NCBI GenBank assembly: GCA_964016885.1
Contig: OZ024743.1
Coordinates: 99,324,001-99,388,000 of the forward strand
Direction of reading: 5' to 3'
Length of the DNA stretch: 64,000 nt
Origin: Eledone cirrhosa
Taxonomy: Eukaryota
The notes under the pieces are model-generated. The model was not told the origin of the DNA and made no database searches. It was given only the letters and a program-made list of their open reading frames with translations. The first letter of the stretch is position 1. Each line of letters begins with the position of its first letter. Shown piece after piece: positions 22,866 to 62,879 of this stretch. Made by a program: the position numbers and the translations under genes.

Positions 22866-23834
22866 TATGTTCCAAACACCAGATAAATTATGAGAAAGTT
22901 ATTTTACTGAATCTCTCCTGATTCTTGATTATCCTCAAAATTATTTGAAAACCGTAGACATGGATTACTATTGCCAGTAATAGACTTCTACAAATTGTTG
23001 GTAACTTAGGACGATCTAATTAATGTTTTACCCCTAACTCTATATTGTCTTGTCAACCCTTTTGATATGAACCTGCCTGAAACCACTTCAGGTTTTATGA
23101 TACAAAACTGCTTGTTTTAAAGTTTTCATATCTAAATTAAAACCTTGTAAAGTGTTGGATTTCTGTTGGTTTTAATTACAAGTATTCCAGTTGTTTGAAC
23201 AATGGAACAACCTGCTCATGAAATTAACGTACAAGTGGCTGAGCATTCTACAAACACGGGTATCCTTAACACAATTCTCAAGACAGTGTGTGAAAGACAG
23301 TGTCAGAAAGACAGTGTGTGACCAAATCAAACTTTTGAATTACAAGTACAACTCATTTTTTTCTTATGGAGTAGACTTGCTCAAGGACAAAGTACATCAG
23401 GGAATTGAACTCATGGCCTTACAACCCTGAGTCAAACACACTAACCACTAAGGCATGTACCTTTATTTTTGTTAAGTAATGTTCAAAACATTACCTTAAT
23501 AATGTAAATGGGAAACCATATTACTAAATCCCTTCAAATACTTCATTATTTTCAAAATAAATTGAAACATGAGATATGTATTTCATTAGAAATATGGTAA
23601 AAAAAAGAGTTAACTAATGTGTATTGACAGAGGCTGAACAGAGATATTAATACAAATATCCTACCAGGGCATGTATCCTACTTGCCAATTTTCTACCGAT
23701 CATCGATCTAGTTTCATATATATATATATATATATATATATAGTGGTAGAACACTGGAAGGTAATATCCGTAGTGGTAGAGCACTCAGTCCATGGGATGA
23801 GTTAGGTAGAAGTGGTTACACAACAGTTAGTTCA

Positions 23835-23884
23835 CCATACCGAGAACAATTGTTTCACCTTAGCAGATCCTCAGCTCATAATGG
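23835..23884 (-). ncRNA. Hammerhead-like motif (inverted arm copy)
   Basis: Minus strand GAG-CTGAGGA-TCTGCTAAGGT-GAAA-CAATTG-TT-CTC. Confidence 0.65.
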
Positions 23885-24555
23885 ACATGGTTATACGGAA
23901 CAGGAAGGACAACCGTAGGAACGCGCATGCGCAGAAACGGTCACTTCACACAGGCAATACTAAATTGTGTGCGAGGTGTAAGGGAGATAACTATGAAAGT
24001 CCGAAAGTTTCTAGTTGATAAGAAAATTAGGATGTTGTAATTCAATCCGGAGTTTTGTAGTTATGTAAGAGGTGTTTCCAGACATGTGGACAACATGTGA
24101 AGAATTCATTTCTTGAGTTTAGGCAATCGCTATTGTGTAATCTCTTTAGAATATTTATTCGTTCATCAATACATAGTCCACACGACAAGTATAGACTACT
24201 CCATTGGAAAGCCATCACAAAGTCCAAGCCATAGGCAAGGGGCAATCCGCCGTGTGGACTATGTATTGATGAACGAATAAATATTCTAAAGAGATCATGC
24301 AATAGCGATTGCCTAAACTCAAGAAATGAATTCTTCACATGTTGTCCATATGTCTGGAAACACCTCTTACATAACTACAAAACTCCGGATTGAATTATAA
24401 CAAAATCCTAATTTTCTTATCAACTAGAAACTTTCGGACTTTCAAAGTTATCTCCCTTACACCTCTTGCATGCAATTTAGTATTGCCTGAGTGAAGTGAC
24501 AGTTTCTGCGCATGCGCATTCGTACGGTTGTCTTTCCTGTTCCGTATAACCATGT

Positions 24556-24605
24556 CCAATACGAGCTGAGGATCCACTAAGGTGAAACAATTGTTCTTGG
24601 TATGG
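24556..24605 (+). ncRNA. Minimal hammerhead-like motif
   Basis: CCAATACGAG-CTGAGGA-TCCACTAAGGT-GAAA-CAATTG-TT-CTTGGTATGG. Stem III is palindromic, the triplet is GUU, and stem II is closed by U-U. Confidence 0.7.
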
Positions 24606-58390: not shown

Positions 58391-59259
58391 ACATCCATAA
58401 ATAAGATACCTGATGAAAGTGATTGGAGATGAAAATGGTTTTTAAAATTGTTCATCTCTAAAGACAGAGCTAACATTTGAAAAAATTACAATCTTGTTGT
58501 TTAAAAAAAGATTAGATTATTTGTATTCTGAAGAAGACTGTAAAGATTATATCAAACTATCAGCATGCATAAAGCAAATTTTTACTTCTCAGTTACTGCC
58601 ATTGCTGTTTAATGTTCTAACACATGCAAAAACAGAAGATATCAACTTTGCTATCTTTTATACTGTGATCTTTATACATTTATATCATGTATATACTATG
58701 ATGTCTATACATTTATTGCTCCTATAGAACCATATTCTATGGTGGAATAGAACCAGAACATTCTAAGTGTATAGAAATAAAACAAATTTCAACAAAGAAC
58801 AATAGTAAAGAATTATGTATTCAAGATGAATACTAAGATGCACAATTTAGATAATGTAAAAGCAATTTGGTATTCAATGTATGTAAAACATTAAGGTTTT
58901 TACACAAAGAAATGTAAAACTTTCTGAATGCTAAAGTTTATAAATAAAAACATCAATGAACATCTATAAAAAAGAGTATTCAATGAAGGAAACAAGTGCT
59001 TGGTGATTATAAATCAGTGAAATAAGTACAAACTGAAATAAGTACTGGAGTCAATATGATTGACTAACACCTTTGAAAGTGGTGTCCTAGCATGGTTGCA
59101 GTTCAATAATTGAAACTAGTAATAGAATTTAAAAATAGAATGTTGTTTAATTCTTTCACTATAATATTTTTAATGAAATACACTACCAGTGATTTTCAAA
59201 TGGTTTTAAAAATAAACAAGAATTTTGAGAGATTTAGTAACATGACAAACTAACAACAA

Positions 59260-60606
59260 GACATTGCTGAAGTTGTACCTAAACCACAACACATTGCTGA
59301 TGTTGTATCTAAATCAGAACCACAACACATTGCTGATGTATCTAAATCAGAACCACAACACATTGCTGATGTTGTATCTAAATCAGAACCACAACACATT
59401 GCTGGTGTTGTATCTAAATCAGAACCACAACACATTGCTGGTGTTGTATCTAAATCAGAACCACAACACATTGCTGGTGATGTATCTAAATCAGAACCAC
59501 AACACATTGCTGATGTTGTATCTAAATCAGAACCACAACACATTGCTGGTGTTGTATCTAAATCAGAACCACAACACATTGCTGGTGTTGTATCTAAATC
59601 AGAACCACAACACATTGCTGGTGTTGTATCTAAATCAGAACCACAACACATTGCTGGTGTTGTATCTAAATCAGAACCACAACACATTGCTGGTGTTGTA
59701 TCTAAATCAGAACCACAACACATTGCTGGTGTTGTATCTAAATCAGAACCACAACACATTGCTGGTGTTGTATCTAAATCAGAACCACAACACATTGCTG
59801 ATGTTGTATCTAAATCAGAACCACAACACATTGCTGGTGTTGTATCTAAATCAGAACCACAACACATTGCTGGTGTTGTATCTAAATCAGAACCACAACA
59901 CATTGCTGGTGTTGTATCTAAATCAGAACCACAACACATTGCTGGTGTTGTATCTAAATCAGAACCACAACACATTGCTGATGTTGTATCTAAATCAGAA
60001 CCACAACACATTGCTGGTGTTGTATCTAAATCAGAACCACAACACATTGCTGGTGTTGTATCTAAATCAGAACCACAACACATTGCTGATGTATCTAAAT
60101 CAGAACCACAACACATTGCTGGTGTTGTATCTAAATCAGAACCACAACACATTGCTGGTGTTGTATCTAAATCAGAACCACAACACATTGCTGGTGTTGT
60201 ATCTAAATCAGAACCACAACACATTGCTGATGTTGTATCTAAATCAGAACCACAACACATTGCTGGTGTATCTAAATCAGAACCACAACACATTGCTGGT
60301 GATGTATCTAAATCAGAACCACAACACATTGCTGGTGTTGTATCTAAATCAGAACCACAACACATTGCTGGTGATGTATCTAAATCAGAACCACAACACA
60401 TTGCTGGTGATGTATCTAAATCAGAACCACAACACATTGCTGGTGTTGTATCTAAATCAGAACCACAACACATTGCTGGTGATGTATCTAAATCAGAACC
60501 ACAACACATTGCTGGTGTTGTATCTAAATCAGAACCACAACACATTGCTGGTGATGTATCTAAATCAGAACCACAACACATTGCTGGTGTTGTATCTAAA
60601 TCAGAA
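59260..60606. repeat. 36-bp minisatellite (CCACAACACATTGCTGGTGTTGTATCTAAATCAGAA)n, about 37 units
   Basis: Directly visible. Variants are substitutions or 3-bp deletions. Confidence 0.97.
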
Positions 60607-62879
60607 AGTTTTGTTAAGCTAGTGTTTGAAATATAATTCAACAAAATTATGCTAGAAGGTTTTTAGATGAATATAAAATCTTTAAAATAAACAGGTAGGT
60701 ATCAGGGAATCAGGGTAGTTTCAAGAAGTTTGCTATCAAAGAGGTTAACACCTGGGAACTACAGTGGACTGGTTTATGACTATGCAACTCAATGACCAAA
60801 TTGTCAATAGCTCTTATCATTTCACTAGTACATTGTCTTGTATCCAGCTTAGTAGAGGTATTGTGAAGTGGTACTGTCTACCATTGTATGCTGCAAGGAA
60901 ACAGAATTGTTTTATCCTTCATTACCTTGCACTGCTGCACAGAAATCTTTTCATATGCAATAGGTAAGTAATTGCAATGTATATCCAGTTTAGAATAAGA
61001 ACATTGTGTCCTTATAAGTCATAAGAGGCAACTAAAAGGGTTAGCACCAGGAAGAATATCTAGGTGTAAAATATTGCCTCAAAAAAGTCCCCATAATGAG
61101 TATGAAACTTTTCATAAGGCCCACAAGGACAAACCCAGCTGTAGTAGGAAAAACAAAGACTGTAAAATGCTTGCTACTACAGCATGTAATAGGAAAATTA
61201 ATGGATGCTATCAGTTGTATTATTATACATAACATATACCCTGAAGTTAGTAGAACTATCAAATAATCAATCAATAACTTATCTTGCTACAACAAAGGTT
61301 TCTAAATACATGGCACAGCAGGAACATGGTAAAAATGTCTTCAAGTGCAAAAAAAGAAAGAAAAAATAATTGCAAATGTTATTGCTCTAACACAGTAGGT
61401 CTATGATCAAAGGCATTCCAGCTCTGACCATCCCATCCCATCTTTACAGACAATTCATCTCAAGACTATTCTTTTTTGAAGTCAATTGGCAGTCATTAGG
61501 GTGTCAAATTAAATGCCTCGTTATTTGTTTCACTACATTGTGCTCAAAAACCAAATCCTGCTGAGGTCAATTTTGCCTTTCCCCCTTTCAAGGTTGATAA
61601 ATAAAGTAGCAGTTCAGTAGTGGGGTTGATTCTTCTTTTATCTCTCTATAACTCTTTCTCTTGCAGTATCTCCTTTTCTGAAAGAAATTGGCTATGTTCC
61701 AACCTGGAGAGGGACCAGCCTGTGCATGACCGATATTCCAGGACAAACTAGGCAAGCCATATATATATATGTGTGTATGTATAAAACAAAGAAAGTGTGA
61801 TAAGAAACCAGGTGGGCCATAATGCCCCAGAGTACTCGATACTAAGGGTAGTAGAGTGGGTAATAGGAAAAGAGTCAGGACCCTGACGGCTGAGCTCCGG
61901 GCGTTTCGACAGCTAGGTCCTGCGGATCTGTATATATATATATATATATATATATATATATATATATATATATATATATAGGACGCTGGTGAATGAGGTA
62001 TTGCATGTAAGCTAAGATAGAAACAAAAAGCAGATGAAGATGGGGTAGAAGAGAAAGGAAGAGAGAGGTAAGACAAACTTTAGAGACATAGAGAGAAACA
62101 TTATCAAAAGAGATATATAAGGGTGGAGAAGGTAAAGGAGAAAGAGGAAAGTAAAAATGGAAGAAGGAAGAAATGAAGAAGAGATGGTAATTAATTCTAT
62201 CTATTCTTAGTATGAATTCTCTAAAGTTAAGTGGGAATATATTCATAAGGAAGAGAATAAAAAACTGAATTTAAACGAAGGAAAAAGAAAATTGAACACA
62301 GAATGGGGGAGTGTGAAGAGGGAGTATAAGATATTAGAGGAAAACTATATGAATGTTTTGAGTGAAAGCAGAGAGAGAGAGGAACTTGTTTAACAGGGAG
62401 ATAGCATAAAATCTAATATAGATGAGTTATGTGTAAATAGGAAGAGAGGAAGAGGTGGGGTATTAATGAAAAAAGAACAGGATTAAAATGCACCAAAGCC
62501 TGGTGGATAAACAATTTAATAAACACAGAATTAGAAAATTAGGTAATTAAGGTGAAAATGAGAAAGATCTCAATATAACCAAATAAAATAGTAAAATAAA
62601 GGAAAAATAAAGATAAAAATAAATAAATGATAAATGAAATAAAATAAAATATTCTCACATTGGCAATTTGGGGGCTAGGGAAAGTAGATTATATCGAACC
62701 CAGTACTTAACCAGGATGAATGAAAGCAAAGTTGAAAAAATATAATAATGGTTTCTATATCTTGCTCATATGTTTCTATGAATGGATGCCCTTCCAAACA
62801 CTTTACTGAATTGAGTGATTGTATTTTATCATGACATCAGCACTACTGTTCACTTCTTCTTATGGGATTCTAATAGGAT

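Follow-up and report, generated by a model that had tools for sequence, protein, structure and literature searches.

Penelope-like elements (PLEs) of the Hydra clade are recognised by a GIY-YIG endonuclease (EN) placed C-terminal to the reverse transcriptase (RT), a DKT motif, a CxCx5C linker, hammerhead ribozymes and a (TA)n target, and Naiads by an N-terminal EN and the lack of canonical hammerheads (accessible text of Craig et al. 2021, PMC8557442). In a PLE of the Poseidon clade, RT has two internal start sites, and what lies between them forms the tail (accessible text of Frangieh et al. 2024, PMC11167929). Here we describe a hairpin in the 5′ leader of Hydra-clade PLEs, found in a 64,000-nucleotide (nt) stretch of Eledone cirrhosa DNA (GCA_964016885.1, contig OZ024743.1, forward-strand positions 99,324,001 to 99,388,000; hereafter the window), which is AT-rich animal DNA with APE-RT-PHD long interspersed nuclear elements (LINEs). 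A sequence-only reading of the window had reported nine GAGYRCTC-type strings as a palindrome shared by otherwise unrelated Naiad families. The GAGYRCTC word forms the 3′ side of a hairpin with a bulge, RCUC-Y-(loop)-R-UH-GAGY-ACU, a real structured cis-element of a known element clade that has apparently not been described before.

All nine strings are present within a few bases of the places reported; seven are exact and the other two, at 49052 and 49651, have T in place of the last C. The whole window contains eight exact GAGYRCTC words compared with 1.53 expected, and none of 100 shuffles reaches eight. The eighth exact word, at the start of a LINE open reading frame (ORF) and not among the nine reported, is likely a chance occurrence and serves as a control. 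The motif had been placed about 50-170 nt past the hammerhead cut; the measurable same-arm distances to GAG are 59 nt (23779), 46, 48 and 48 nt (29975, 34428 and 61830) and 81 nt (44873). The sites at 30176 and 38830 would be linked to a cut site only across the arms of an inverted pair, and no hammerhead was found upstream of 49052 and 49651.

In place of a whole genome, loci from outside the window and mapped public reads were examined. The outside set comprised 95 loci, 78 from metagenomes fetched by profile (the best 80 of 407 being retained) and 17 from genome bins, in which a hammerhead descriptor found 90 cut sites adjoining an ORF; these gave 40 complete leaders, 29 after dereplication, all from other animals, with a median leader similarity of 0.39 and a median N-terminal protein identity of 0.41. 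GAGYRCTC is found 27 times within the 4,554 nt of leader sequence, in 20 of the 29 leaders, once in 4,791 nt of upstream sequence and twice in 58,594 nt of ORF, while shuffled leaders give 0.12 matches. The word is thus far denser near hammerheads than in the background, which strongly supports the earlier proposal of a conserved cis-element positioned relative to the hammerhead. A word chosen post hoc, THGAGCAC, occurs 50 times in 27 of the 29 leaders, twice in 23 of them, and neither antisense nor in the ORFs; across all 95 loci, 137 of its 147 occurrences are at leader-type positions. A search of viral contigs found no relatives. Loci L079-L094 are animal PLE loci within contigs filed as bacterial genomes, likely host contamination.

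The hairpin was identified from 57 candidate anchors, one of which scored too low, leaving 56, with the partner defined as a strict Watson-Crick match to GAGC within 45 nt. An exact upstream partner is present at 51 of the 56 (shuffle mean 4.8, maximum 11), and beyond a two-base bulge every one of the 51 forms a further pair, C-G in 35 and U-A in 16; with bulges of 0, 1, 3 and 4 nt the same pair is found in only 2, 2, 8 and 15 cases. The following two pairs are kept in 27 and 24 of the 32 longer hairpins, compared with 15.0 and 12.9 after permutation, and the pair-count covariation is 0.310, compared with 0.123 when shuffled and at most 0.094 when slid. Compensatory changes in the lower stem include GCAC/GUGC in L085 and L088 and UCUC/GAGA in both hairpins of L050, and the octopus families have ACUC/GAGU. 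Five anchors are without an exact partner, the first pair is an A-C mismatch in 3 of 105 cases and the fifth pair wobbles in 1 of 105. The loop ranges from 6 to 49 nt, its upper pairs covarying. In L065, L033 and L050 both hairpins of one element depart alike from the consensus (UCU or GCU after the stem; the UCUC/GAGA stem), which suggests that the two may have evolved together with a single binding partner.

The first seven places in the ranking of a covariance model made without window sequences go to window PLE hairpins (E 0.002-0.17), and the model finds three hairpins that the sequence-only reading had overlooked (44814, the second hairpin of the long element; 38874; 48989). The same model misses four of the nine reported sites (23779, 30176, 44873 and 49651), and gives 82 matches in the remaining 66 loci, many within the same families. 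Rfam gave no match to the hairpins in the window or in nine of the 95 loci, only low-complexity microRNA matches, and it missed the hammerheads too, so that its sensitivity here is limited.

The conserved unit is not a palindrome: it is strand-specific, it pairs with the upstream RCUC, and none of 53 outside 8-mers is self-complementary, the eighth base being C in 31 of 51. A role of the word as an RNA dimerisation palindrome, one of three functions that had been offered for it, could draw on the perfect palindrome GAGTACTC in three window copies and on the view that PLE hammerheads act as dimers (accessible text of PMC4209133), but the dimer palindromes are separate sequences in hammerhead loop III, and the wider motif is found 50 times in sense and never in antisense. 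The idea is contradicted by these counts, is already largely refuted and deserves hardly any credence.

In complete leaders the hairpin usually occurs twice between the hammerhead cut and the AUG, 57-74 nt apart. Hairpin 1 begins 34-58 nt past the cut and hairpin 2 at 93-126 nt (one at 178 nt); hairpin 2 lies about 13-49 nt before the AUG and hairpin 1 about 74-114 nt before it in 26 of 27 cases, distances that as counted are one base too long.

The ends of inserted copies lie at a UA-rich site, 0-9 nt upstream of one or the other hairpin. In the outside set, 49 copies lack an ORF after the 3′ hammerhead; eight of these reach a contig end and 19 have no same-family reference, leaving 22, of which 16 end 0-8 nt before a hairpin, with both hairpins represented. 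Five window junctions have a longer copy for comparison, and they lie 7, 3, 2, 3 and 4 nt before a hairpin, whatever the length of the insert in its loop. The prediction was also tested by mapping public runs to the family D leader, where contig depth is not copy number and restriction-site-associated DNA sequencing (RAD-seq) samples few loci: among the loose ends listed, one pile stands 4 nt ahead of hairpin 1, at 44908, with 105 RAD-seq reads and, from two runs on one sample, 24 and 28 contigs; hairpin 2 has another at 44821-44823, 6-8 nt ahead of it, with 92 reads and 2 + 2 contigs. Several loose ends continue into (TA)n, and read depth drops stepwise at both sites. An additional pile, at 44928-44931, coincides with AATT and probably reflects cutting by a restriction enzyme.

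TAT/ATA trimers are most frequent 6-9 nt ahead of GCTC, with 26 of 51 at -7, and are smeared relative to ACT; the standard deviation of the patch position is 1.9 nt to GCTC and 3.5 nt to ACT. This register bears on a second of the functions offered, an internal core promoter, in which a TATA-like patch would be followed about 25-30 nt downstream by an initiator-like GCACTCT. Internal promoters in the pseudo-long terminal repeats of other PLEs are known (accessible text of PMC8557442 and PMC3846280), and the mean spacing of 23.8 nt from the TATA/ATAT patch to ACT also favours one. A promoter would not, however, need a covarying stem, and in window families the spacing is disrupted by inserts of 36 and 49 nt. 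We regard it as very improbable: the covariation is that of a hairpin, and the TA-rich site keeps its register with the foot of the hairpin and not with the GAGCACT word. The third function, an RT/EN binding site, is the best fit of the three because element ends are registered to the hairpin; with these ends as a proxy for cDNA starts, the register between the candidate recognition signal and the starts is fixed.

Head-to-head inverted pairs contain both kinds of end. In families C, E and B one arm stops before hairpin 1 and the other has hairpin 1 and a further 35-77 nt. One site per arm is seen in all three window pairs and in three of four outside same-family head-to-head pairs (six of seven in total). 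The 5′ ends are mixed, those of L003 and L082 starting at site 1 and those of L004, L029, L045 and L062 not, with many at contig edges. At three loci (L040, 2520-2560; L059, 700-760; L086, whole) pieces with hairpin 1 are inverted in place or upstream of the element, and several Hydra families are nested in one (TA)n tract.

From the hairpins, the ends and the pairs we consider it probable that the twin leader hairpins are RNA signals bound by the element's own RT, which would position two internal RT starts and thereby make the Penelope ‘tail’, as has a precedent in the two internal starts of the Poseidon clade. The protein would grip the invariant stem, the bulge and ACU; the EN would nick (TA)n, and the nicked end would pair with the UA patch, where cDNA would begin, so that the adjoining hairpin would not be copied. 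A start at site 1 would give a short end and a start at site 2 an end with a tail of about 60-70 nt bearing hairpin 1; use of both sites on opposite target strands would give head-to-head pairs with the tail on one arm.

Several observations weigh against this proposal. The hairpins are marginal on their own: RNAalifold predicts a stem of 4 bp only, and the pairing probability is below 0.3 for the window copies at 34428, 38830 and 49052; the structure is therefore likely stabilised by protein. Three of the four lower pairs are invariant in the hairpin alignment (A2), which holds only sites selected for having a partner, in related sequences, so that its covariation is to be read with caution, and the counts of G-U and A-C, 11 and 6, hardly separate RNA from single-stranded DNA. 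Six of the 22 usable ends miss the hairpins (by 12, 27, 27, 43 and 94 nt, and one with none), two of them probably owing to wrong references, and 27 of the 49 outside copies were unusable. The end windows already contain 41% of the leader TAT/ATA trimers, so that microhomology explains part of the clustering; relative to that null the p value is 0.002, from copies that are not independent. In one outside pair both arms end at site 1.

The same ends could arise at the DNA level, if the GIY-YIG EN recognised the motif in an element copy or its cDNA, whether as duplex DNA or as a hairpin extruded from it, and cut the adjoining TA patch; they would then be nuclease resolution sites and not RT starts. 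The tail was attributed to EN-mediated resolution by Craig et al. (PMC8557442), the Drosophila virilis EN required tail sequence for recognition (as cited in PMC11167929), and the near absence of wobble in the fifth pair would suit DNA. We nevertheless find it unlikely: site 1 ends lack hairpin 1 and site 2 ends lack hairpin 2, as fits a template signal beyond the copied part; the variable loop with its covarying upper pairs is unlike a duplex site; and the RT starts mapped directly in the Anolis element coincide with tail ends (accessible text of PMC11167929). More improbable still is that the role of the hairpins lies in translating, stabilising or packaging the uncapped RNA that the hammerhead has cut, with ends clustered only where UA patches match (TA)n. 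The closeness of hairpin 2 to the AUG, the 5′ end of family D at its cut site and the finding that ribozyme cleavage can drive cap-independent translation in viruses (accessible text of PMC13725137) agree with such a role, which would leave unexplained the UA patch fixed 6-9 nt from each hairpin foot, the same constraint on the more distant hairpin 1 and the inverted pairs with one site per arm.

If RT binding is taken as the function of the hairpins, a more speculative extension is a two-headed, telomerase-like ribonucleoprotein, in which each subunit of an RT-EN dimer would grip one hairpin and align the nicked (TA)n on its own UA template. On a tandem RNA, or one circularised by the hammerhead, the two cDNAs would cover complementary arcs, each ending close to where the other began. 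This model fits the insertion at 38538-38960 (one strand running from site 2 to site 1 and the opposite strand from site 1 to site 2), the tail-only pieces at 49023 and 49622 and the two 5′ ends at site 1 (L003, L082), but the four other mapped 5′ ends do not fit, and we put it forward as a possibility that is rather doubtful.

Among the closest described systems is Poseidon_Ac, which likewise has two start sites downstream of the hammerhead with the tail between them, both target strands being extended there, and a predicted protein dimer. It differs in that the starts are inside the ORF in an AC-rich stem loop, the tail is 30-40 nt and there is no homology to the target; no cross-species motif is reported in the accessible text (PMC11167929). 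The Hydra clade, by contrast, has a repeated, clade-wide hairpin 3′ of each site in the 5′ leader, a tail of about 60-70 nt and a UA patch matching the target. In LINE-2/CR1 3′ tails, the R2 3′ untranslated region (UTR), hepadnavirus epsilon and the telomerase template-boundary element, a small RT-bound RNA structure fixes the start of copying. Telomerase has an internal template on which a short repeat primer is aligned, and LINE stem-loops lie 5′ of the start and get copied. Unlike these stem-loops, the Hydra hairpin is 3′ of the start, uncopied and paired, in a comparison with LINE-2/CR1, R2, epsilon and telomerase made by description only.

The motif is already visible, though unremarked in the accessible text of PMC8557442, in the published consensi of Hydra elements from coral, sea cucumber, copepod and octopus. 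By eye the hairpin is found in Hydra-2_Amil, Hydra-1_Ajap (twice) and Hydra-2_Ajap, variants of it are found in Hydra-1_Crog and Hydra-1_Obim, and Hydra-1_Amil stops before it. The accessible main text of that paper treats only the hammerhead, the words ‘hairpin’ and ‘stem-loop’ being absent, and no leader hairpin was found among motif-word matches in its published Naiad and Chlamys consensi. Literature searches found no description of the motif, most subscription papers being outside their coverage.

The assignment to Naiads did not survive: by their motifs and layout the window elements are Hydra-clade PLEs. The Naiad features (an N-terminal GIY-YIG, a DKA motif and no canonical hammerhead) are not those of the family D element, whose 730-aa frame has VY..YIG at aa 611, so that the GIY-YIG EN is C-terminal to the RT. 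DKT replaces DKG in this protein and in 54 of the 56 rows of the alignment of relatives (A1), and the RWK position is RWR in family D and RW[KR] in 41 of the 56 rows. The CxCx5C linker and the CxxC and CxH of the EN are present; Cx2-5CxxC is absent. The family D protein has no Pfam match, and one relative (P0018) matches PF01541 at 549-586. The families are also not unrelated: the profile of the 56 relatives matches family D, the ORF start at 38811 (family B) and the C-terminal remains at 24057-24378 (family C), and the three families with coding remains are therefore one clade. No coding remains were found in families A, E and F, whose hairpin and layout suggest that they too belong to the Hydra clade. 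A canonical hammerhead and (TA)n insertion are found in families C and D, only variants or halves of a hammerhead in A, B and E, and none was seen in F.

Table 1 Coordinates of the PLE features and of the control motif match in the window.
Feature	Position	Strand	Site in sequence-only reading	Remarks
Family D near-full-length Hydra-clade PLE	40953..44960	-		5′ end is the hammerhead cut sequence beside (TA)n; 3′ end is site 1
Family D RT-GIY-YIG coding region	42137..44781	-		Two frames, 44781-44275 and 44329-42137
Family D type I hammerhead	41001..41056	-		Canonical; core 41051, cut after 41006, loop III TATATA
Family D hairpin 1	44874..44903	-	44873	Other genomic copies end at 44908; missed by covariance model
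Family D hairpin 2	44793..44814	-		Other genomic copies end at 44821-44823
Family C head-to-head inverted pair	23742..24630			Hydra-type C-terminal coding remains
Family C hairpin 1	23780..23802	-	23779	A/CU internal loop replaces usual bulge
Family A hairpin	29955..29981	+	29973	First pair an A-C mismatch; copy stops 45 nt later at (TA)n
Family A hairpin	34408..34434	+	34426	Descriptor and covariance model
Family A hairpin	61831..61857	-	61830	Folding, descriptor and covariance model
Family E inverted pair	30105..30439			Plus-arm hammerhead core CGGATGA, cut after 30381
Family E hairpin 1	30177..30238	-	30176	49-nt insert; second ACTC allows alternative register
Family B inverted pair	38538..38960			Descriptor, junction and profile evidence
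Family B hairpin 2	38831..38849	-	38830	Top match of model built without window sequences
Family B hairpin 1	38874..38922	+		GAGC-CCT, 36-nt insert
Family B hairpin 1, another copy	48939..48989	-		
Family F hairpin	49028..49058	+	49050	Opens piece of about 110 nt ending at TA run; no hammerhead or ORF seen
Family F hairpin	49627..49657	+	49649	Folding and descriptor
Eighth exact GAGYRCTC	12428..12435			5′ end of APE-type LINE ORF; no hairpin partner

The family D element is 4.0 kb long, above the usual length of less than 3 kb for Hydra-clade PLEs. Two low-complexity in-frame insertions at 42600-43350 lengthen its protein relative to relatives of about 700 aa, and its 3′ UTR contains long TA/TG repeats. 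Nearly all other family D copies have C at 44898, with which the upper stem of hairpin 1 reaches four pairs. In the family C pair the plus arm stops 7 nt before hairpin 1 and the minus arm has hairpin 1 and the tail; this hairpin has a pairing probability of 0.86-0.95 and was matched by neither the descriptor nor the covariance model. The family E pair is built alike, with its plus arm stopping 3 nt before hairpin 1 and hairpin 1 and the tail in the minus arm. The minus arm of the family B pair contains hairpin 2, the ORF start, a deleted body and a hammerhead variant (core CAGAAGA, cut after 38567) and ends 2 nt before hairpin 1, while the plus arm has hairpin 1 and the tail and ends 3 nt before hairpin 2. 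The CAGAAGA core is found in both family B copies (38562-38615 and 34288-34321), one of them without stem II, and the ribozyme is possibly inactive in a family that still spread. The inverted arms at 30105-30440 and 38863-38966 were also considered as one novel ribozyme, which was rejected, as these arms are the ends of elements placed head to head.

The three family A copies keep only the GAAA-stem III-GUC half of the hammerhead; the pieces (29890-29940, 34341-34390 and 61875-61915) begin after a TA run with this half, and their stem III loop contains GAGCTC, with a competing hairpin overlapping GAAA. Another canonical hammerhead, with loop III TATATA, is at 12985-13092, in a copy that stops about 50 nt past the cut at a TA run and lacks the hairpin, as expected for a site 1 end.

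The remainder of the window includes a young family of APE-RT LINEs in which a PHD finger immediately follows the RT (9307-12780, 30372-33461, 2228-4261, 54788-56441 and 20987-21679), its copies 92-98% identical and one with a 1157-aa open frame, and an older subfamily at about 75%. Minisatellites of 36, 40 and 32 nt are at 59282-60606, 62887-64000, 5164-6516 and 2014-2316, the 32-nt array occurring twice and flanking a LINE copy. Long inverted repeats comprise a palindromic element of about 330 nt beside the family D end (40610-40942), a pair of 230-nt arms (51002-51603) and the centre of the family C pair (24088-24348). A repeated element of about 300 nt, likely a short interspersed nuclear element, has tRNA-like Rfam matches above the gathering score at 7242-7314 and 46053-46110 that were not called by ARAGORN.

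The hairpins bear on how PLEs, the retroelements most closely related to telomerase, choose their template and why their tail is one-sided. A clade-wide, covarying motif of about 25 nt predicts both element ends, and natural compensatory variants of it exist for mutagenesis. The hairpin is also an annotation marker for the ends of Hydra-clade elements and for their non-autonomous pieces and, if the proposed function is true, the hairpins would mark out the smallest RNA needed for a retrotransposon that targets (TA)n.

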